Numbered from the stretch's first letter, positions 46,164 to 58,742 are shown. The stretch: 64,000 nt of DNA from Rhodothermales bacterium (GCA_046756545.1 JBHHWM010000002.1:5776-69775); one strand, 5' to 3'. Notes: generated by a model from the sequence alone, not told the origin. A program made the numbers and translations.

Positions 46164-47903
46164 ATGCCCGACGCCATCACGCGTGCTCAGCGCACCGAAC
46201 GCTTCGACCTCCGAGCGATTTATGAAACGAGCCAGCTACTCAGTAGCTCGCTCGACCTGGAGTTTGTGCTCAGCAATCTCTTGTTGACGGCCATGAGCAA
46301 GCTGCTCGTAACGCGGGGGGCTGCGCTGCTCCACGACCCCCTTGAAGATGCCTACCGGGCTGCTGCCGTCAAAGGCCTTCCCGGTCTCAAAAAAGGAGAC
46401 CTGGTGCAAACCGCCGATCTTCCCCACGACCGCATGCTGCACGGCGACGAAGTCCCTGAAGCGCTGGCGGCTCTGCGCGTTCGGCTCGTTTTGCCGGTGG
46501 CCTTCGGGCATCGCAAGATCGGGTTGATCGGGCTGGGCAAGAAGGCGACGGGGCAGCCCTATGAGGAGCAAGAACTGGAGTTCATCCAGTCGCTGGTCAA
46601 CATGTCGTCCTCGGCGGTGCACAACTCGCTTATCGTCGAAGAACTCCGCCAGGCCAACCGCGACCTCGACGGCAAAATCCAGCAACTCAACACGCTGTTC
46701 GATCTGTCGCAGGAGTTCAACGCCACCGTGGACCGGGAGCGCCTCGTCAAGCTGTTCTCGTTCGCGTTGATGGGGCAGATGCTGGTGGGCAAGCATCTCT
46801 TCATGATGCGGCGCACGGGGGGCGGAAACGACGAGGCCGAACACACCCTGGAGATCGTCTCGATAAAAGGCATTCAGGAGAAGGTGATAGAGCCCGACCT
46901 GGTGGACCGGCTGTGCGCCCTGGAAGATCTGGTGCTTCTGGAGCAGGAGGCCGAGGATGCCGAAGACTGGGAAGCTTTTCGGCAATGTGGGTTGGTGCTG
47001 GCCCTGCCGCTCCGGCAGCAAGGCGAGACGCGCGGTTTGCTTTGCCTGGGGCCGAAAATGACGGGCCAGGGCTACCAGCCGGACGAAGTGGAGTTCCTGT
47101 ATTCACTGGGTAACCTGGCTCTCGTCTCCATTCAAAATGCCTATCTGTTCGAAGAGCAGGTCGAGAAAGAGCGGCTGGAGAAGGAAATGCGCCTCGCGCG
47201 AGAGATCCAGGAGGGATTGCTGCCGAGCCGAATCCCCACGGTGCCCGGTGCCGAAGTGGCCGCGCTGGCCCTGCCCAGCCGCGAGGTGGGCGGCGACTAC
47301 CTCGACGCGGTGCTCTTGGAAGGCAACCGCCTCCTGCTGGCCATCGCCGATGTGACGGGCAAGGGGGTCCCCGCTGCGCTGTTGATGGCCAACCTTCAGG
47401 CGTGTCTCCACGTCATGGTGCCGATGGATCTGACGCTCGAAGAAGCCACGAGCCACATGAACCGCGTCATCTGCCAGAATACGGGGTACGATAAATTCAT
47501 TACCGCTTTTACCGGTATTTACCACGCCGAGACGGGACAATTCGAGTACGTCAATGCAGGCCACGAGCCGCCGATGCTGGTGCGTAACAACGGCGACATC
47601 GAGTTGCTGGAAGCCGGCGGTCTGTTGCTGGGCGTGATGCGCAATATGCCCTACGAACGCGGATGTGTCATGCTCGAACCGGGCGACACGGTGGTGATGT
47701 TTACGGACGGTGTGACGGAAGCGATGGGGGCGGAAGAAGAAGAATATACGCCGGAGCGGTTGGAGGCCTGCCTCAAAACGCATCACCGTCAATCGGCGCA
47801 GGCCTTGCTCGACAGCATCCAGCAAGACGTTATCGTGTTCACCGGCGAGGTACCCGTCCTCAGCGACGACCGGACGATGGTGGTGCTGAAGGTAACTGGG
47901 TAG
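46164..47903 (+). CDS. PP2C/SpoIIE-family serine phosphatase with N-terminal GAF domains
   Basis: The C-terminal part, REIQEGLLP...GGDYLD...LAIADVTGKGVPAALLMA...FTDGVTEA...SDDRTMVVLKV, is the RsbU/SpoIIE pattern. Two GAF-like regions precede it. Confidence 0.85.
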   Translation: MPDAITRAQRTERFDLRAIYETSQLLSSSLDLEFVLSNLLLTAMSKLLVTRGAALLHDPLEDAYRAAAVKGLPGLKKGDLVQTADLPHDRMLHGDEVPEALAALRVRLVLPVAFGHRKIGLIGLGKKATGQPYEEQELEFIQSLVNMSSSAVHNSLIVEELRQANRDLDGKIQQLNTLFDLSQEFNATVDRERLVKLFSFALMGQMLVGKHLFMMRRTGGGNDEAEHTLEIVSIKGIQEKVIEPDLVDRLCALEDLVLLEQEAEDAEDWEAFRQCGLVLALPLRQQGETRGLLCLGPKMTGQGYQPDEVEFLYSLGNLALVSIQNAYLFEEQVEKERLEKEMRLAREIQEGLLPSRIPTVPGAEVAALALPSREVGGDYLDAVLLEGNRLLLAIADVTGKGVPAALLMANLQACLHVMVPMDLTLEEATSHMNRVICQNTGYDKFITAFTGIYHAETGQFEYVNAGHEPPMLVRNNGDIELLEAGGLLLGVMRNMPYERGCVMLEPGDTVVMFTDGVTEAMGAEEEEYTPERLEACLKTHHRQSAQALLDSIQQDVIVFTGEVPVLSDDRTMVVLKVTG

Positions 47904-50549: not shown

Positions 50550-50578
50550 TCTACTTTTCTAACCATAGCCCGGTTCTT

Positions 50579-51229
50579 ATGGCAGACAAGGTGTTGAAGT
50601 ATGAAGGAGAAGACGTGATTGTGGCCTATAACGTGCGTCGTTGTATCCACATGGCCGAATGCGTGCACGGCCTGCCGGCGGTATTCGATCCCGAGCGCCG
50701 TCCCTGGGTCCGTCCCGATGAAGCCGCCGCCGATCCTCTTACGGAGGTGGTGACGCGGTGTCCTACAGGGGCGCTACAGTTCACCCGAAAAGACGGCGGA
50801 CCGGAGGAAGCCGTCCCGGATCAAAACACCGTCACCGTCGACCCCGACGGCCCGCTCTTCGTTCGCGGAGACATCGAAATCGTCATGCCCGACGGCTCCG
50901 TACTGCTCAGGGAGACCAGGGTGGCCTTGTGCCGGTGCGGCGCGTCGAACAACAAGCCGTTCTGCGACAACAGCCACGGAAATATCGATTTTCAGGATTC
51001 GGGTGTTTTTCGAGAGGTGCGAGTCAAGTCAGAAAAAGAGGGGGAAGACGGTCTGCTGCGGGTGCGGCCCTCGCGCAACGGCCCGCTGCTGGTTCAAGGG
51101 CCTCTCGACCTCATCGGTGCCGAGGAGCGTGTGCGGGGCAGCCAGGCGGCGCTGTGCCGGTGCGGTGCGTCGAGCAACAAGCCTTTCTGCGACGGCACGC
51201 ACAACACCATCGGCTTCACGTCGGAGTGA
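50579..51229 (+). CDS. Iron-sulfur protein: divergent 4Fe-4S mono-cluster domain + two CDGSH domains
   Basis: The N-terminal part, RRCIHMAECVHGLPAVFDPERRPWV...RCPTGAL, looks like a Fer4_19 domain. It is followed by CRCGASNNKPFCDNSH and CRCGASSNKPFCDGTH, which are CDGSH-type 2Fe-2S motifs. Confidence 0.8.
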   Translation: MADKVLKYEGEDVIVAYNVRRCIHMAECVHGLPAVFDPERRPWVRPDEAAADPLTEVVTRCPTGALQFTRKDGGPEEAVPDQNTVTVDPDGPLFVRGDIEIVMPDGSVLLRETRVALCRCGASNNKPFCDNSHGNIDFQDSGVFREVRVKSEKEGEDGLLRVRPSRNGPLLVQGPLDLIGAEERVRGSQAALCRCGASSNKPFCDGTHNTIGFTSE

Positions 51230-51237
51230 GCGAGGGC

Positions 51238-51657
51238 CTACGCGCCCTGGATGTGTGCGACGAACAACTGCTCCAGCGTGGCTTCAGGGTTGCGGGTCCG
51301 ACCGGTGTGAACCTCGGAGGTCTGGAGCATCGCGGAACGCGGGGTGGTGAGCCAGTGAAAGCGTTCGGACGGCGGCAGCAGGCCGATCAGTCCGGCATCG
51401 GGGGTGCCCCGGCAGATACGCTGGTACGCATCTAGATAGCGCTCGATCAGTTCTACGTCGATGGTAGGGCAGAGCCTTGTAAGGTGATGCCGGTTCAGGT
51501 AGAGGCGGATGTCGAGGTAGTCGGCGGTACGCGCATGTAGCACCACGCCGACGTTTTGAAAGGAGCAGAGATGGATCAGCGGCACCACCCGCACGATGGC
51601 GTAGTCATAGTCGATCCAGGTCGAATCGGGAGGAGGCGGTGTCGGCGGCGGCTTCAT
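51238..51657 (-). CDS. DUF3037 domain-containing protein
   Basis: The segments YDYAIVRVVPLIHLCSFQNVGVVLHA and ERFHWLTTPRSAMLQTSEVH match my recollection of DUF3037. Its ATG overlaps the stop of the upstream kinase-like gene (ATGA at 51654-51657). Confidence 0.68.
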   Translation of the reverse strand: MKPPPTPPPPDSTWIDYDYAIVRVVPLIHLCSFQNVGVVLHARTADYLDIRLYLNRHHLTRLCPTIDVELIERYLDAYQRICRGTPDAGLIGLLPPSERFHWLTTPRSAMLQTSEVHTGRTRNPEATLEQLFVAHIQGA

Positions 51658-52493
51658 CGGCGGTAGGGGAGCGGCTGAGAGGGTTGCCGGTTGCGTGCGC
51701 GCCGGGCCTGTATCGCTTCTTCTAAAAACGGGCGTGGCCCGCGAAGGCGCTGCCGTAAATAATCATAATAGGCCCGGCGATTCTCTTCGGCCGAGGCGAA
51801 GGGGGGGCGGCGGCCTTCCGGGGCATCCATGAGCAACTCTTCCGGAATGAGGGCGACCGTTTCGCTCAGCACGTCGTCGTGGAGGCGGGTCGTCATCCGG
51901 GTGTCGGCGGCTTCGAGGTCGCCGGCGAGCGGCAAGAGTACATGATCCTTGATGAGCGGGAAGGACGTGTGGATGCCGGCTTCGTTCAGCCCGTCCCAGT
52001 TATGGTGAAAGTAGAGGGCCGCGCCGTGGTCGATCATCCAGAGGCGACGGTCCCATAGCAAAAAATTGGGGTTGCGCGGGGTACGGTCGATGTTGGTGAC
52101 GTAGGCGTCGAACCATACGATGTCGGCGGCCAGGTCCGGCGAGACGAAGTCGCCCACGGCCACCGGGTCGAAGTTGAATGCCCCGTCGAGATAGCGCAGG
52201 CCGACGTTGAGTCCCCGGCTGCCTTTCAGGATGTCCTGGATCTCGGGGTCGCGCTCCGTCCGGCCGAAGGCGGCATCGAGATAAATCAGGGCCAGTTCGG
52301 GCACCGGCAACCCGGCGCGTTGGGCCAGCAACCCGACGATGAACTCGGCGATCAGCGCGCGCGCTCCCTGACCGGCCCCGCGAAACTTGACGACGTACAG
52401 GCCGCCGTCCTCGGTATCGAGGATAGCCGGTAGCGAGCCGCCTTCGCGGAGCGGCACCACGTACCGGGTGGCGGTATGCGTAGGGAGCATCAT
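51654..52493 (-). CDS. HipA-like / PI3-4-kinase-like small kinase family protein
   Basis: It has a Gly-rich loop context, LYVVKFRGAGQGARALIAEF. Its catalytic-loop-like VTNIDRTPRNPNFLLW...MIDHGAA is analogous to the HipA GN.DxHxKN / DxG motifs. This is the family usually found next to DUF3037. Confidence 0.62.
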   Translation of the reverse strand: MMLPTHTATRYVVPLREGGSLPAILDTEDGGLYVVKFRGAGQGARALIAEFIVGLLAQRAGLPVPELALIYLDAAFGRTERDPEIQDILKGSRGLNVGLRYLDGAFNFDPVAVGDFVSPDLAADIVWFDAYVTNIDRTPRNPNFLLWDRRLWMIDHGAALYFHHNWDGLNEAGIHTSFPLIKDHVLLPLAGDLEAADTRMTTRLHDDVLSETVALIPEELLMDAPEGRRPPFASAEENRRAYYDYLRQRLRGPRPFLEEAIQARRARNRQPSQPLPYRR

Positions 52494-52787
52494 TGCGTTA
52501 GGGGGCAGTCCGGGCGTAAGAGGTCGAGGTGCTGCAATCTACTGATTCCTCGTCGAAGGAAAAACGCACCGGTGTTGGGCGGGGGAGCGCGCATGAGTTC
52601 GACGCCCCAGTGTTTTGGATGAACAAGATTGGATGGAACGCGCGGCAAAGAGTTCCAGTTTTCGGTTTTCAGCGCATGGAAAACGCATCGAAACAATTCG
52701 CTTGTTCGCCCCGTTTTTTTTGCGCCTTTTCGTTGGAGGTCCCATGAGAGGGCGGATTGTTGACAGGCAAGACCTCGGTAGTAGCGT

Positions 52788-54182
52788 ATGATCTTCATGG
52801 CCCTGGGTGATACCGATGCCATTGGCGCAAGCTGTCATTTTCTGAAGGTTGAAGGAACAGGCCTCGTGCTCGATGCCGGTGCCGATCCGGATGAAGAAGG
52901 TCTCGCCAGTCTTCCCCAGTTCGATGTCATTCATGCCAACCCCGGCTGGTATGTAGATCATGCCATCATTACGCACGCCCACCACGATCATATCGGGGCG
53001 CTGCCGGTGCTGGTCGAGCATTTCCCACATGTGCTCGTCCACATGACGCGGGCCACCCGCGATCTGGCGGAATTTGTGTTGCCGGCCTCGGCCCGGTTGC
53101 AGCGTCGCCGGTTGCGCGAGGGCTCGTCGGTGCATCAGCCCCTCTTCGACGAGGAACAACTGGAAGTGCTCAACTATCTCTACCTGACGCACGAACTCGA
53201 AGCATCGTTCGATGTGACGGGTCTTCGGACTACGTCGCCGGTGACTGCACGATTTTACTACTCCGGTCATATTCTTGGCTCGGCGGGGGTGTTGTTGACG
53301 TTTGAGGAAGAGGGACGGGAGCGCCGCGTCTTCTATTCCAGCGACACCAACCTGCGGCATCAATCCATCATTCCCGGCGGGCATTACCCCGAATCCCCCG
53401 TCGATGTGCTCATTATGGAATCCACCATGGGGGCCGATCCCGAAGCCGAGTTGACGACGCGTCGCACCGAGGAACACAAATTCCAGGAAGCGTTGTTGCG
53501 GGTGGTTGAGCGAGGAGGTACGGTGTTGGTGCCAGTGTTTGCGCTGGGGCGAGCGCAGGAGACGCTCGCGCTCATCGACCGTTTCAAGCAGCGGGGGCTG
53601 TTGCCCGAGGACGTACCTGTGTATACGGCCGGAGGGATGCGTGCCATCGCCGATGTGTATGACCGAACGCGCTATGTTACGCCCCGCCTGAACCCTGACT
53701 TCCAGGTCTATGAGGTGGACCAACGCCGGATGCCGCGTACCTACACGGCCAAGCGAAATGCCCTCGAAGGACCGAGCATCCACGTGGTCAGCAGCGGGAT
53801 GATGTTTGAAGGATCGCTCTCGAACTGGGTGGCGCAGCGACTGGTAGAGGATGAGAAAAATGCTATTTTTCTCGTTGGTTTTTCGAAGGAAGACGCCCCG
53901 GCGGATCGGCTGCTCAGTGCAGCGCAGAATGATGCAAGGGAGGTGGTGCTCGATGCGGATATAGGGGCCCAACCGCTACGTTGCGAGGTTGAGCGGTTTC
54001 GCTTCAGCGGCCACAGCCACCGCCGCGACCTGATCCAACTCGTCGAAAAACTCAATCCGAAGAAGGTGATCCTCGTCCACGGTGAAGGAGGCGCGCGCGA
54101 GTGGATGGCCGATAATATTCAGTTTTTCTACCCGGAGATCGACGTTTTTATGCCCGAAGCCGGTGTGCCGCTCGACGTTTAG
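52788..54182 (+). CDS. MBL-fold beta-CASP family hydrolase (RNA-metabolising, RNase J/CPSF-like)
   Basis: The motifs are GASCHFLKVEG..LVLDAG and ITHAHHDHIGALP (HxHxDH). Beta-CASP-like motifs are SSDTN and ESTMG. The C-terminal FSGHSHRRDL...KKVILVHGE is RMMBL-like. Confidence 0.75.
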   Translation: MIFMALGDTDAIGASCHFLKVEGTGLVLDAGADPDEEGLASLPQFDVIHANPGWYVDHAIITHAHHDHIGALPVLVEHFPHVLVHMTRATRDLAEFVLPASARLQRRRLREGSSVHQPLFDEEQLEVLNYLYLTHELEASFDVTGLRTTSPVTARFYYSGHILGSAGVLLTFEEEGRERRVFYSSDTNLRHQSIIPGGHYPESPVDVLIMESTMGADPEAELTTRRTEEHKFQEALLRVVERGGTVLVPVFALGRAQETLALIDRFKQRGLLPEDVPVYTAGGMRAIADVYDRTRYVTPRLNPDFQVYEVDQRRMPRTYTAKRNALEGPSIHVVSSGMMFEGSLSNWVAQRLVEDEKNAIFLVGFSKEDAPADRLLSAAQNDAREVVLDADIGAQPLRCEVERFRFSGHSHRRDLIQLVEKLNPKKVILVHGEGGAREWMADNIQFFYPEIDVFMPEAGVPLDV

Positions 54183-54269
54183 TTTGACGTTTGATGTTCG
54201 AAGCCATTGTACTTTTTACAGAAGAAGCGGACATTGGACTTTGCATGCTGACCTTCGAACGGACTCCTT

Positions 54270-57200
54270 ATGCCGTCTATTCCTACGCCGTCTGCCGAAT
54301 TGCTGGATGATTTTGCGGCCGGGCTCCGGCCCCGGCTCGTCGGTGATCTTCGCATCGATGCCCTGACGCGTGTCGTCTATGCCACCGATGCCAGCCTGTA
54401 TCAGATTCAGCCTCTCGGTGTGCTGATCCCGAAACATGTGGACGACGTACAGGCGGCGCTGGAGGGGGCGGCGCGCTATCAGATTCCCGTTCTGCCGAGA
54501 GGCGGCGGCTCGTCGCTGGCCGGGCAAACCGTCGGGGCCGCCCTCGTTATCGACTTCACGAAACACCTCGACGCCCTTCACGAGATCAATGCGGACGAAC
54601 GATGGGTGCGCGTGCAGCCGGGCCTCGTGCTCGATCATCTCAACGCGGCCCTGGCCCCGCGCGGCCTGATGGTAGGACCGGATCCCGCCAGCAGCAACCG
54701 CGCCACGCTCGGCGGCATGGTCGGGAATAACTCGACGGGTACACACTCCATCCTCTACGGCAACCTCGTCCGCCACATCCTTGAAATTCGCGCGCTTCTG
54801 GCCGATGGATCTCCGGTCGCCTTCAACGCGCTCGACGCCGCCGCCTGGCGTGCCCGGACGAAACAGACCGGGTTCGAAGGACTCATCTATCGCGGGCTCG
54901 ATCAACTCCTCAAGGCGCGCGGCCCGATCATCGAGCGCGACACGCCGAAGCACTGGCGGCGCAACAGCGGCTACCGGCTGGAATATGTGCTCAACGAAAA
55001 CGGAGAAGCCGGGCGTCCGGCCACGACGCGCAACGTGGCCCAGTTGCTCTGCGGCAGCGAGGGAACCCTGGCCGTCAGCACGGAACTGACGCTCTCGCTC
55101 GTGCCGCGCCCGAAGCGAACGGCGCTGGGTATCGTGCATTTCCACGCACGCCCGGAGGCTCTGCGCGCCGTGACGACGATCCTGGAAACCGAACCGTCGG
55201 CTGTCGAACTTCTGGACGGCGTGGCCATCGAACAGACGCGCCGGACGCCCGGTTTTGCACACCGCCTGACGTTCGTAGAGGGAAGTCCGGGTGCGGTGCT
55301 GATCACCGAGTATTACGGCGAAGCAGAACGCACCCTTCGGTCCAGGTTGGAGGATCTCGAACGCGCCCTCGACCGGGCAGGGCAGGGCTATGCCGTCGTC
55401 CGGGTCGTCGAGCCGTCGCAAATCCAGAATGTGTGGGCCGTTCGCAAGGCAGGGCTCGGGCTGATCATGGGGGTCAAGGGGGAGTATAAACCGGTCGCCG
55501 TCATCGAAGACGCCTCCGTGCCGGTCGAACACCTCGCCGATTACATAGAGGAACTGGATCGCCTGCTGGCCGAGACGGACACACGGGCCGCCTACTATGC
55601 GCACGCTTCAGCCGGGTGCCTGCACGTGCGTCCGTTTCTCAATACCAGGGACCCGCGTGACGTGGCGAAGATGCGCGAAATCAGCCAGGGATCGATGGAA
55701 CTGGTGGCCAGGTACGGCGGCTCGGTGTCGTCGGAGCACGGCGACGGGCTTGTGCGGGGCTGGCTCAACGAACGATTCCTCGGGCCGGATCTCTACCAGG
55801 TTCATCGTGAACTCAAGGAGATCTTCGATCCGGAATGTATACTCAACCCCGGCAAGATCGTCGACACGCCGCCGCCCGGCGACAACCTGCGCCTGGGTCC
55901 TGCCTACCGAGCCATGCCGATCCGCGAAATGCTGGACTGGTCGAGGGACGGCAGCTTGGCGGAGGCGGTGGAAATGTGCAACGGCAACGGAGCCTGTCGT
56001 AAGCTTCACAGCGGGGTGATGTGCCCGAGCTTTATGGCCACGCGGGAAGAAGAACATTCGACGCGGGGGCGGGCCAATGCGCTGCGCGCCGCGATGTCGG
56101 GCCTGCTTCCGCCGGAGGAATGGACCGGCGCGCGCATGTACGAGGTGATGGATCTGTGCATCCAGTGCAAGGCGTGCAAGGTAGAGTGTACCTCCAACGT
56201 GGACATGGCCAAGATGAAGACCGAGTGGCTGAGCCACTACCAGGAGGCTAACGGCCCGTCGCGGCGGGCGCGACTTTTTGTTTATCAGCCGCGTCTGGCG
56301 CGGTTGCTGAGTGGGGGCGTGAAGGCCCGCATCGTGAACTGGGCGAGCAGCTTGAAGCCGGTACGCGCCTTGTTGAAACAAACGCTCGGCATCAGCCCGG
56401 AACGCACGGTGCCCCCGTTTGCCCGCGAGCCGTTCACAACCTGGTTTGCCGGGCAGCAGTGGGAGGATGAAGGGGCCTCCGTGGTGCTTTTTGCCGACAC
56501 GTTCAACAACTATCAGCATCCCGAGACGGCGCGGGCCGCCGCCGAATTTTTACACCGAACCGGGTACCGCGTCATCGTACCCGATGCTCGGACCTGTTGC
56601 GGGCGTCCCTTCTTGTCGAAAGGGTTCGTTACCGAGGCGCAGGAACGCGCGCTCCAGACCGTTGACGCCCTGTACCCGTACGCCGAGCAGGGCTTGCCTA
56701 TCGTCGGGTTGGAGCCGAGTTGCATCCTCACGTTTTTGGACGAGTTTCTGACGCTCTTGCCCGGCGATCTGCGGGCCCGGCGCGTGGCCGAAGTGACGAT
56801 GACCTTCGAGCAATACGTGGCACGGCTCGCCGATGCAGGCGCGCTCGCCGATGTCGCCTGGACGGACGACACCCGCCGGGTGTTGCTGCACGGGCATTGC
56901 CATCAAAAAGCCCTTGTCGGCACCGGGCCGGCCGAACGCTGCCTGTCGTTGCCGCCCAGCTACACGACCGAGACGGTCGATGCGGGCTGTTGCGGCATGG
57001 CGGGAGCCTTCGGATACGAGAAAGAGCACTACGCGCTGTCGATCAAGATGGCGGAACACCGCCTCGCGCCGGCCGTCCGGGCGGCTGCCGAAGATACGAT
57101 CATTGCGGCGGCGGGTACTTCGTGCCGGGCGCAGATTCGGGACACCACGGGCCGCCACGCGTTGCACCCCGCCGAGGTGTTGCGCGATGCGCTGGCATAG
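54270..57200 (+). CDS. FAD-linked oxidase fused to 4Fe-4S and CCG (Fe-S oxidoreductase) domains, YdiJ-like 2-hydroxyacid dehydrogenase
   Basis: It is 976 aa. The FAD_binding_4 region is VLPRGGGSSLAGQTVG. The FAD-oxidase C-terminal part is SSEHGDG. The ferredoxin cysteines are CNGNGACRK and CIQCKACKVEC. Two CCG-type Cys motifs are present (TCCGRP and AGCCGMAG). Confidence 0.85.
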   Translation: MPSIPTPSAELLDDFAAGLRPRLVGDLRIDALTRVVYATDASLYQIQPLGVLIPKHVDDVQAALEGAARYQIPVLPRGGGSSLAGQTVGAALVIDFTKHLDALHEINADERWVRVQPGLVLDHLNAALAPRGLMVGPDPASSNRATLGGMVGNNSTGTHSILYGNLVRHILEIRALLADGSPVAFNALDAAAWRARTKQTGFEGLIYRGLDQLLKARGPIIERDTPKHWRRNSGYRLEYVLNENGEAGRPATTRNVAQLLCGSEGTLAVSTELTLSLVPRPKRTALGIVHFHARPEALRAVTTILETEPSAVELLDGVAIEQTRRTPGFAHRLTFVEGSPGAVLITEYYGEAERTLRSRLEDLERALDRAGQGYAVVRVVEPSQIQNVWAVRKAGLGLIMGVKGEYKPVAVIEDASVPVEHLADYIEELDRLLAETDTRAAYYAHASAGCLHVRPFLNTRDPRDVAKMREISQGSMELVARYGGSVSSEHGDGLVRGWLNERFLGPDLYQVHRELKEIFDPECILNPGKIVDTPPPGDNLRLGPAYRAMPIREMLDWSRDGSLAEAVEMCNGNGACRKLHSGVMCPSFMATREEEHSTRGRANALRAAMSGLLPPEEWTGARMYEVMDLCIQCKACKVECTSNVDMAKMKTEWLSHYQEANGPSRRARLFVYQPRLARLLSGGVKARIVNWASSLKPVRALLKQTLGISPERTVPPFAREPFTTWFAGQQWEDEGASVVLFADTFNNYQHPETARAAAEFLHRTGYRVIVPDARTCCGRPFLSKGFVTEAQERALQTVDALYPYAEQGLPIVGLEPSCILTFLDEFLTLLPGDLRARRVAEVTMTFEQYVARLADAGALADVAWTDDTRRVLLHGHCHQKALVGTGPAERCLSLPPSYTTETVDAGCCGMAGAFGYEKEHYALSIKMAEHRLAPAVRAAAEDTIIAAAGTSCRAQIRDTTGRHALHPAEVLRDALA

Positions 57201-57236
57201 GGTGTCGTAGATGCAGATTCCATACATGATGATGCC

Positions 57237-58742
57237 ATGAGTTGTGCGACCCTCCGAACTATTTTTTTCTGTGGCTGCCTGGTGGCATTCAGGGCCGGTG
57301 CGGCGAGCCGGGAGGCCGCCGCGCAGGAATCGGCCAGGGAGCAGTTGGCGGAACGCGGCGTTGCCGTTACCCCCGAAGCGTTCGTTGAGGCGGCGTTCGA
57401 GGGGGACCGTGCCGTCGTCGATCTGTTGTTGCTGGCAGGCATGGATCCCAATGCGTCCGGAGCGTCTTCGGAGAACGAGCGTCCCCCCGCCTTTTTTTCC
57501 GACAACGAAGGCGATGTCGTGCGGTCGGACGGCGCTACCGCGTTGATGGCGGCCTCTTTCGGTGGCCGGCCCGGCGTGGCGCAGCGGCTCCTGGAGGCCG
57601 GGGCCGATCCCAACAGGGCGACCACCCGAGGCGGCTACACCCCGCTCATGTTCGCCGCACGGGCCGGGCATGTCGAGGTCGTCGAGATACTCCTGGAAGC
57701 CGGGGCCGACCCCGGGACGCAGGAACGACTCTGGGACATTACGGCGCTGTTTATCGCGGTGCGTGCCGGGCATGTCGAGGTGGTCGAATCGTTGCTGGCA
57801 GCGGGCGACGACCTCGATAGCCGAGGGCACCGGGGCAGCACGTTGCTGTCGTTCGCCGCGATGGAAGGGCACGTCGACATGGTGGCTTTCCTGCTCCGGC
57901 TCGGAGCCGATCTTCGCGCCGTGGACGATTTCGGCAACACGGCCCTGATGGCCGCCGCCTACGGGGGGCACCGCCACGTCGTCGAGGTGTTGGTGGAGGC
58001 CGGGGTCGACCCGCTGAGCGGGACGAAGAGCACCAGCAAATATGCCGTCAATAACGTTACGCCGTTGATGGCTGCGTCGGCGGGCGGGCACCTCGCGGTC
58101 ATCGATCTGCTCCTCGACCTCGGAGCCGATCCGAACCGGCAGGACGCTAAAGGAAGGACGGCGTTGATCCACGCGGCTCGGCTCGGGAAGGCGGAAGCGG
58201 CACACCGGCTGGTGGCGGCAGGGGTGTCGTTGGACGGCCCGGATACGCGCGGCTTCACCGCCTTGCTCTATGCGGCGTCTTCCCGGTATAGCCAGATAGA
58301 GGTGATCGACGTGCTGCTGGCTGCCGGGGCCGATCCGAATGCCGTAAACGTCGAGGGACATACCGCCCTGCGGCGCGCCGCAATCGCCGGGCACGTCGAG
58401 ATCGGCAGGGCGTTGCTGGCCGCCGGGGCCGATCCCAACCTTGTGACGGACCAGGCAGAATCGCCGCTCGCGCAAGCGGCCTATGGGGGGCATGCGGCGT
58501 TCGTCGGGTTCTTGTTGGAGGCCGGGGCACATCCCGACCTGGGCATGGAGCAGATTGGCTGGACGCCCCTGATGGCCGCCGCCGACCAGGGCGCGGCGGA
58601 TGTCGTGCGCCTCTTGTTGGAAGCCGGGGCCGATCCGCACGTGCGCATGATCGATGGAACGACGGCCTACGATAGGGCCCTGGCTAACGGGCACCTGGAG
58701 GTGTTACGGTTGCTGGAAAAGGCCGGCGCGGAGGAGAAGTGA
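57237..58742 (+). CDS. Exported ankyrin-repeat protein (about 13 ANK repeats)
   Basis: The signal-like N-terminus is IFFCGCLVAFRAGAA. Regular 33-aa units follow, such as GYTPLMFAARAGHVEVVEILLEAGADPG, TALFIAVRAGHVEVVESLLAAGDDLD and WTPLMAAADQGAADVVRLLLEAGADPH. Confidence 0.9.
   Translation: MSCATLRTIFFCGCLVAFRAGAASREAAAQESAREQLAERGVAVTPEAFVEAAFEGDRAVVDLLLLAGMDPNASGASSENERPPAFFSDNEGDVVRSDGATALMAASFGGRPGVAQRLLEAGADPNRATTRGGYTPLMFAARAGHVEVVEILLEAGADPGTQERLWDITALFIAVRAGHVEVVESLLAAGDDLDSRGHRGSTLLSFAAMEGHVDMVAFLLRLGADLRAVDDFGNTALMAAAYGGHRHVVEVLVEAGVDPLSGTKSTSKYAVNNVTPLMAASAGGHLAVIDLLLDLGADPNRQDAKGRTALIHAARLGKAEAAHRLVAAGVSLDGPDTRGFTALLYAASSRYSQIEVIDVLLAAGADPNAVNVEGHTALRRAAIAGHVEIGRALLAAGADPNLVTDQAESPLAQAAYGGHAAFVGFLLEAGAHPDLGMEQIGWTPLMAAADQGAADVVRLLLEAGADPHVRMIDGTTAYDRALANGHLEVLRLLEKAGAEEK

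Follow-up and report, generated by a model that had tools for sequence, protein, structure and literature searches.

A HipA_2-family kinase gene and a DUF3037-only gene in a Rhodothermales chromosome: a short-partner variant of a known two-gene family

What does a HipA-like kinase do when its gene comes first in a pair and the second gene codes for a DUF3037 protein in place of a HipB antitoxin? We examined such a pair in a window of 64,000 nucleotides from a Rhodothermales bacterium, the window being the whole stretch of DNA that was analyzed. A sequence-only reading had described ORFs of 279 and 139 aa on the minus strand that share an ATGA overlap at 51654-51657, and ORF calling and the sequence itself bore this out. 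Its account of the flanks, with CDGSH and beta-CASP genes on the opposite strand, agreed with our positions and Pfam identities. The shared stop and start codons imply that translation of the kinase and its partner would be coupled, and the two genes would also be co-transcribed. The features of the locus are:

51654..52493, minus strand: HipA_2-family Ser/Thr-type kinase gene, putative toxin/effector (ATG start, 279 aa; Pfam HipA_2)
51238..51657, minus strand: DUF3037-only partner gene, putative kinase neutralizer (ATG start, 139 aa; Pfam DUF3037)
51654..51657, minus strand: ATGA overlap of the kinase stop codon (TGA) and the partner start codon (ATG), read directly from the sequence
52365..52388, minus strand: codons for K36 and the Gly-rich loop FRGAGQG, residues 36-43, from subfamily conservation
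52065..52094, minus strand: catalytic loop NIDRTPRNPN, residues 134-143, with D136 as predicted catalytic Asp, from conservation and the DS-6A alignment
52023..52034, minus strand: IDHG motif, residues 154-157, with D155 as predicted metal-binding Asp, from conservation; aligns with LIDHN of DS-6A
51316..51369, minus strand: most conserved stretch of the partner, S97-E-R-F-H-W-L-T..P-R-S...Q-T-S114, from invariance among 53 homologues
52494..52787, no strand assigned: divergent intergenic region of 294 bp on the 5' side of the kinase gene, where the promoter presumably lies
50579..51229, plus strand: flanking CDGSH/Fer4_19 protein gene (Pfam)
52788..54182, plus strand: flanking beta-CASP metallo-hydrolase gene (Pfam)

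The kinase and its DUF3037 partner

Both ORFs are real genes, since a Rhodothermales MAG has yielded database entries identical to both proteins, named 'HipA family kinase' and 'DUF3037 domain-containing protein', and homologues of the two genes number in the thousands. The description of the first protein as a HipA-like kinase was supported by Pfam HipA_2 (PF20613; 68 bits against a cut-off of 27, E=1e-18), although HipA_C itself stayed below the Pfam threshold (13.9 bits against a cut-off of 30.5, E=0.043, residues 27-73 only). The DUF3037 assignment of the second protein was upheld by PF11236 (114 bits, cut-off 22.6, E=4.4e-33). Neither protein matched a model in the NCBIfam search.

The kinase motifs quoted in the sequence-only reading were all located: VVKFRGAGQG at residues 34-43, NIDRTPRNPN at 134-143, and IDHG at 154-157. 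K36, G41, and G43 are invariant in all 81 subfamily kinases, as are E50, D136, N141, and D155, and G157 of IDHG is 100% conserved in the same 81 proteins. Because K36, E50, D136, N141, and D155 never vary, the subfamily kinases are predicted to be active enzymes, not pseudokinases. The AlphaFold model of the kinase (pLDDT 90.6) was compared with solved structures, and the best match was CtkA from Helicobacter pylori (PDB 3akk; E=1.6e-5, TM 0.58, identity 11-15%). The lipid kinases PI4KII-alpha and VPS34 came next, followed by HipA (4pu5, 4pu3) and HipT (8ezs, 8ezr). A sequence search of the solved structures with the kinase gave no detectable match, CtkA included. With K36, the Gly loop, D136, N141, and D155 all intact, the 279-aa product has the full catalytic set of an enzyme with the protein-kinase fold.

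The partner consists of the DUF3037 domain and little else. In all 78 subfamily partners, no more than 34 aa separate the C-terminus from the point where the DUF3037 profile ends, and the partner's 120 closest homologues are all about 130-175 aa long. A DUF3037 profile search of 1.84 billion representative proteins returned 2,126 clusters; the best 150 of these are almost all 100-190 aa. The few long DUF3037 proteins that we found carry C-terminal additions that differ among them. For example, P0314 (288 aa), encoded after a HipA_2 kinase, has a C-terminus with no PDC-M66B match, and P0311 is a DUF3037-AHSA1/SRPBCC fusion. Because short forms prevail and the long ones carry differing additions, the DUF3037 domain is what stays constant in the partner, and a C-terminal domain is an optional, variable addition. 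We also looked for natural kinase-DUF3037 fusions as evidence of interaction; the only candidate was a chimera of two partial proteins (P0326) that is probably an artifact.

Conservation of the short partner is unusually high: across 53 sequences, 18 positions never vary. Its most striking conserved stretch is PPSERFHWLTAPRSAVLQTS, in which S97, E98, R99, F100, W102, T104, S108, Q112, and S114 are invariant among the 53 homologues. H101, R107, and R120 are nearly invariant in the same set. Only F100, T104, Q112, and S114 are shared with DS-6B, the partner in a characterized system described below, and W102 is replaced by Tyr in that protein. The polar cluster S97, E98, R99, and H101 is thus specific to the short-partner subfamily.

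The AlphaFold model of the partner (pLDDT 93) contains a three-stranded sheet, then helices and a small C-terminal hairpin. It shares no fold with solved structures (best E=1.6), and the partner sequence has no match among PDB sequences. As the DUF3037 model is confident and neither type of match was found, we rejected a HipS-like or HipB-like partner. The DUF3037 fold also occurs in four predicted viral proteins.

The earlier statements that the kinase gene comes first and that a HipB helix-turn-helix protein is missing also held up. The 294-bp upstream region contains no HTH or HipB-like ORF, and in relatives the genes on that side differ or are missing. In the same region, we found no sigma-70-like promoter, no convincing operator-like palindrome or repeat, and no conservation with the orthologous region of a related Rhodothermales locus (L089). 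The lack of an operator-like repeat or conserved upstream element is in line with an absence of promoter-binding control, as weak negative evidence.

Comparison with known systems

We compared the pair with described defense systems and kinase modules. The kinase matched the PADLOC model PDC-M66A nearly over its full length (77 bits, E=2.4e-22) and PHROG phrog_3162 (E=2.6e-20). The partner matched PDC-M66B (E=1.4e-6) over profile positions 3-128 of 281 only, and phrog_5137 over positions 5-130 of 279 only. The PHROG families matched by both proteins are phage-encoded protein families. The pair thus resembles PDC-M66 in matching both of its models and differs in missing the C-terminal part of PDC-M66B, about 150 aa. 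PADLOC-DB v2 classes PDC-M66 as a multi-gene candidate for phage defense, and PDC systems stem from a 'guilt-by-embedding' screen (PMC12988326; Payne et al. 2024).

The experimentally studied relative that we aligned directly is DS-6, with sequences and coordinates taken from the PMC13092281 supplement. hhalign aligned the kinase with DS-6A (probability 96.9%, E=1.6e-10, 28% identity over 193 columns) and the partner with residues 6-128 of the 275 residues of DS-6B (probability 91.8%, E=7.5e-7, 22% identity). DS-6A scored 53 bits on the PDC-M66A model, below the 77 bits of the kinase studied here. DS-6 consists of a HipA-related kinase and a DUF3037+DUF1829 protein and defends E. coli (DefensePredictor, Science 2026; PMC13092281); the same paper renames it HipAD, citing Brenes & Laub, Cell Host Microbe 2025. 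Defense was lost when a key residue of DS-6A, predicted to be catalytic, was mutated, and the strain table lists a D139A mutant of DS-6A (PMC13092281). AlphaFold3 predicted binding of DS-6A to DS-6B with ipTM 0.76-0.79 and of DS-6B to DNA with ipTM 0.67 (PMC13092281).

The locus shares with DS-6/HipAD a HipA_2-type kinase gene in first position, a DUF3037 gene after it, a 4-nt overlap, and the lack of HipB, and D136 of the kinase aligns with DS-6A D139. The two systems differ in their partners: DS-6B has a C-terminal DUF1829-like domain that is predicted to contact DNA, whereas the 139-aa partner has none. The kinase also has a C-terminal helical tail about 30 aa longer than that of DS-6A, ending in RR. 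Finally, families of the DS-6 type are represented in PHROGs, whereas the subfamily described here was not found on viral contigs.

A second studied relative lies beside Retron-Sda1. There, a HipA-like and DUF3037 pair defends E. coli against phage Bas51 and does so without needing the retron (PLoS Biol 2025; PMC12548924). Deleting its kinase gene abolishes defense, and deleting its DUF3037 gene is toxic (PMC12548924). The authors describe DUF3037 as strongly associated with HipA-like genes and as PDC-M66 in PADLOC (PMC12548924). Our pair resembles this two-gene unit, which works on its own. It differs in that the Sda1-associated DUF3037 protein has a C-terminal region like those of retron type III DNA-binding proteins, and in that a reverse transcriptase and an ncRNA lie beside that pair, whereas the window has no such neighbors.

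Similarity to other kinase modules is more partial. The locus shares a protein-kinase-like fold and HipA-type catalytic motifs with canonical HipBA, but it lacks the HipB HTH antitoxin, has the reverse gene order with the kinase first, and codes for a kinase in which HipA_C is sub-threshold and whose length is 279 aa, compared with 426-438 aa for the HipA chains matched in the fold search. HipBST is similar in joining a short HipA-like kinase to a small non-HTH partner, and HipT is among the fold matches. Unlike HipBST, the locus has no HipB and its partner gene is downstream rather than upstream; since the DUF3037 model has no solved-structure match, no HipS-like or HipB-like fold was detected in it. 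CtkA tops the structural matches of the kinase model but has no sequence-level match, and we know of no DUF3037 partner for CtkA.

These comparisons make the earlier label 'unknown function' out of date at the family level, as PDC-M66, DS-6/HipAD, and the Retron-Sda1 pair all belong to it. The family is already known: PADLOC-DB v2 (dated 2023) listed it as a candidate, and validation came in 2025-2026. The locus is a short-partner, chromosomal, non-phage-borne variant of this HipA_2-DUF3037 system.

Distribution and genomic site

We scanned one genome per species across 185,579 species for relatives and confirmed at least 572. Identity within the subfamily is 51-78% across Bacteroidota, Gemmatimonadota, Chloroflexota, and other phyla. 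Detailed locus comparison used the best 80 of the at least 572 relatives; these show 51-66% identity and span more than 8 phyla, with Gemmatimonadota in the majority. Their taxa are Rhodothermales, other Bacteroidota, Chlorobiota, Gemmatimonadota, Chloroflexota, Acidobacteriota, Myxococcota, Methylomirabilota, Burkholderiaceae, and Solirubrobacteraceae. The Myxococcota relatives include a cultured Corallococcus. An orthologous pair (47% identity) is present in Bacteroides finegoldii and Parabacteroides distasonis, and genetic tools exist for both genera. In B. finegoldii, the two proteins are WP_004305885.1 and WP_004305884.1.

The sequence-only reading had put forward co-localization of the two families as a check, and the result was strongly positive. 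In 78 of the best 80 of the at least 572 relatives, the kinase gene is followed immediately by a DUF3037 ORF on the same strand. The two genes overlap by 4 nt in 47 of these 78 loci and by 14-26 nt in 19 more. One exception (L054) has an apparently intact kinase gene followed by a hairpin, with no DUF3037 gene within 6 kb downstream; the other (L064) is a rearranged locus at a contig end. The kinase and DUF3037 genes have almost never been separated in evolution. All-against-all ORF clustering of 83 loci yielded only these two genes, antisense shadow ORFs, and lineage-specific synteny, so we rejected a conserved third component. Two-component regulators recur near the pair at variable positions.

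Identity across phyla (59-64%) is nearly equal to that within the order (66%), which suggests that the pair has spread horizontally under strong constraint. Carriage by phages or plasmids is essentially nil. No relative of the subfamily was found in 2.9 million viral contigs, phage genomes gave only three distant partial matches, and 8 of 72,556 plasmid records contain the subfamily, most of these being very large and non-mobilizable. In Bacteroides and Chondrinema, the pair sits in ordinary metabolic contexts with no mobile elements.

The surroundings in the window are similarly ordinary. The neighbors code for a transaldolase, a sugar nucleotidyltransferase, a GAF-SpoIIE phosphatase, an FAD/Fe-S oxidase, and similar proteins, and no defense genes, integrases, or transposases occur within about 10 kb of the pair. 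Four loci ascertained through the kinase at 66-77% identity (L087, L088, L089, and L005) have the same block: FAD-oxidase, beta-CASP, a variable segment, kinase, DUF3037, in some cases CDGSH, transaldolase, NTP transferase, and SpoIIE. In L087-L089, identities are 73-77% for the kinase, 61-75% for DUF3037, 78-81% for beta-CASP, 72-74% for the FAD-oxidase, and 68-69% for the NTP transferase. Within this Rhodothermales subclade, the pair diverges at the rate of its housekeeping neighbors.

Synteny and equal divergence led us at first to favor a core housekeeping gene pair. Because the pair looked core-like, we carried out an unbiased empty-site test in which loci were picked through homologues of beta-CASP, not of the kinase. 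L094 (beta-CASP 80%) has the pair at the syntenic site. The complete genome of Rhodocaloribacter litoris (L097, beta-CASP 68%) keeps the block but lacks the pair and the CDGSH gene, leaving a spacer of 39 bp from transaldolase to beta-CASP. In the complete 4.8-Mb genome of L096 (beta-CASP 71%), a dynamin-like GTPase gene stands in the pair's place. In L095 (beta-CASP 75%), the pair occurs neither beside a Uma2 gene nor within the 15 kb of that locus; a Uma2 gene precedes the pair in L004. The empty sites, which occur in the complete genomes CP076718.1 and CP030158.1, downgraded the core-gene explanation. Presence and absence at one syntenic site among related Rhodothermales (L094 against L097 and L096) show the pair to be accessory: it sits as cargo in a small variable spot flanked by conserved genes, and one subclade has retained it by vertical descent. 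As to the check for variable or defense islands that the sequence-only reading had proposed, the spot is variable and is empty in some relatives, and no defense genes lie near the pair in the window. We also considered a functional link to the SpoIIE/PP2C phosphatase gene (46164-47903) and rejected it, as this gene is equally present in the pair-less L096 and L097.

Possible functions of the pair

We favor the reading, with a probability of about 0.6, that the locus is a two-gene kinase-toxin/neutralizer module of the HipA_2-DUF3037 family (PDC-M66/DS-6/HipAD). By analogy with the homologues, the DUF3037 protein would bind the kinase and hold it inactive. Phage infection or another insult would relieve this inhibition, and the freed kinase would phosphorylate an essential host protein and stop growth. 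The outcome could be abortive infection or a persistence-like state. The better-studied kinases HipA and HipT target aminoacyl-tRNA synthetases. The neutralizing role proposed for the partner derives from the genetics of the Sda1-associated pair and the predicted DS-6 complex. With no counterpart of the DS-6B C-terminal domain in the partner, any autoregulation of transcription through such a domain would be missing, so control in the short-partner variant would rest on stoichiometric co-translation and direct protein-protein inhibition instead of promoter binding.

The sequence-only reading had proposed a non-canonical module with toxin-antitoxin-like or phage-defense roles. The PDC-M66 matches, the homology to DS-6/HipAD, and the published DS-6 and Sda1 experiments, which concern homologues, speak for that proposal, but this copy is the short-partner variant. 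Several observations count against the module reading. Toxicity, binding, and defense are extrapolated from homologues that are 22-28% identical, and the partner lacks the C-terminal half that is present in both experimentally studied systems. The window contains no defense genes, integrases, or transposases, and the numbers of relatives on viral contigs (0 in 2.9 million) and in plasmid records (8 of 72,556) weigh in the same direction. The same is true of the L054 kinase, which has no DUF3037 partner, and of the syntenic, housekeeping-rate evolution in the subclade. Synteny and a housekeeping-like divergence rate are unusual for defense or toxin-antitoxin genes.

The main rival explanation, which we consider doubtful, is that the two proteins are a domesticated, non-toxic signaling pair serving a normal cellular process, with DUF3037 as regulatory subunit, adaptor, or substrate and with no addiction or defense role. 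It would account for the conserved synteny and for divergence equal to that of housekeeping neighbors in the Rhodothermales subclade, for contexts free of mobile elements here and in Bacteroides and Chondrinema, and for the absence of the subfamily from viral contigs. The partner is also unusually conserved for an antitoxin and has many invariant polar residues that DS-6B lacks, and the orphan kinase in L054 has an intact active site. However, presence and absence at the same syntenic site indicate that cells can do without the pair, the 80 genomes revealed neither a third conserved gene nor a conserved pathway context, and the only characterized homologues form toxin/neutralizer pairs.

The selfish alternative is a toxin-antitoxin (addiction) module that stabilizes its own locus and brings no anti-phage benefit. 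This explanation draws on the same architecture and homology as the kinase-toxin/neutralizer reading, and it fits a pair that is accessory yet stably kept once acquired and that has no recognizable defense island around it. Nevertheless, we judge it quite unlikely, because both tested homologous systems protect against phages and the subfamily is nearly absent from plasmids, the typical home of addiction modules. A small-molecule kinase, like the lipid, aminoglycoside, and choline kinases of the same fold, is highly improbable; in this reading, DUF3037 would contribute enzymatic activity or ligand binding to a metabolic or modification pathway. In its favor, PI4KII-alpha and VPS34 are nearly as close as HipA and HipT in the fold search, and a ligand pocket would fit the conserved polar residues of DUF3037. 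Against it, the pair has no consistent link to any metabolic gene; CtkA, which is structurally nearest, has an entry that describes it as a kinase; in sequence, HipA-type kinases are the closest relatives; and DS-6 defense is reported to be kinase-dependent.

One further idea, which is speculative and in our view unlikely to hold, concerns the partner itself. The short DUF3037-only form may be a separate, widespread subfamily in which DUF3037 is both sensor and switch. The polar cluster (S97, E98, and R99, with the near-invariant H101, R107, and R120) might then bind a ligand or phage cue, or serve as the phospho-acceptor of the kinase. Such a pair would be a minimal post-translational switch with no DNA-binding autoregulation, perhaps co-opted for a stable cellular role over defense.

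Returning to the kinase-toxin/neutralizer module, the pairing of HipA-like and DUF3037 genes has only recently been validated as an anti-phage toxin/neutralizer system. The locus in our window establishes no new principle but presents the minimal form of that system. This short form dominates the nearest 150 of the 2,126 DUF3037 clusters and is conserved across many environmental phyla. A kinase with a bare DUF3037 protein would be a compact pair for structural and biochemical work. The dominance of the short form, its high conservation across phyla, and its absence from phages suggest that DUF3037 by itself suffices to control the kinase.

A variable spot between the transaldolase and beta-CASP genes

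The gap that holds the kinase–DUF3037 pair lies between a transaldolase gene and a beta-CASP gene.

50550-52787, transaldolase–beta-CASP gap, variable spot

This gap is a small variable spot whose contents differ among related Rhodothermales. The window carries a CDGSH gene together with the pair, and L089 carries the pair with CDGSH reduced to a 21-aa remnant. Three other related loci (L087, L088 and L094) contain the pair and an additional 261-aa ORF or MBL-fold gene. The same gap is occupied by a dynamin-like GTPase in L096, a complete genome that lacks the pair at this site, and is empty in Rhodocaloribacter litoris (L097), with only a 39-bp spacer.

Another relative with the pair, L004, has a Uma2-family (restriction-endonuclease-like) gene immediately before it (L004:5641-6000). 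In L095, this Uma2-family gene (L095:5027-5587) identifies the equivalent position, from which the pair is missing.

Other genes and antisense ORFs in the window

Several further features of the window were considered.

46164-47903, GAF-SpoIIE (PP2C-type) phosphatase gene, 3.3 kb from the kinase
52539-53972, minus strand, 477-aa shadow ORF
54216-55604, minus strand, 462-aa shadow ORF
56550-58694, minus strand, 714-aa shadow ORF

The phosphatase is probably unrelated to the pair because its gene is found equally in the pair-less relatives L096 and L097. The three long ORFs, each antisense to a real gene, were rejected as base-composition artefacts of GC-rich sequence; comparable shadow ORFs produced spurious conserved clusters in our neighbour analysis. 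The window also encodes a 501-aa protein (57237-58742) with ankyrin repeats nearly throughout (Ank_2, E=5e-80). Proteins made almost wholly of such repeats are uncommon in free-living bacteria.

Exceptional loci and DUF3037 fusions

Two loci depart from the arrangement in which DUF3037 directly follows the kinase gene. In an Ardenticatenaceae MAG (L054:6001-6900) the kinase is an orphan: it retains every catalytic residue, and we found no DUF3037 gene within 6 kb downstream. A near-perfect palindrome of ~46 nt (GGCTTGTAGTGCGCGC...GCGCGCACTACAAGCC) lies 3' of this orphan gene. The second locus, near a contig end in a Chloroflexota MAG (L064:4691-6455), is rearranged: one strand encodes a full-length kinase, and the opposite strand carries the 3' part of a kinase gene (profile positions 174-265) and a DUF3037 gene.

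DUF3037 also occurs joined to other domains. The 268-aa protein P0311 (L092:213-1019) combines an AHSA1/SRPBCC ligand-binding-type domain with DUF3037. The 346-aa P0326 is a chimera that joins part of HipA_2 to part of DUF3037 and may have arisen artefactually, through misassembly or a frameshift.

The kinase C-terminal tail

The kinase terminates in two arginines.

51657-51665, kinase C-terminus, Y277-R278-R279

Most subfamily members (57/81) likewise end in -RR. The penultimate Arg is encoded variously by CGC, CGG, CGT, CGA and AGG, and the -RR end is retained even at loci without the ATGA overlap. Together, these observations indicate that selection acts on the protein tail itself and that the -RR end is more than a by-product of the overlap.
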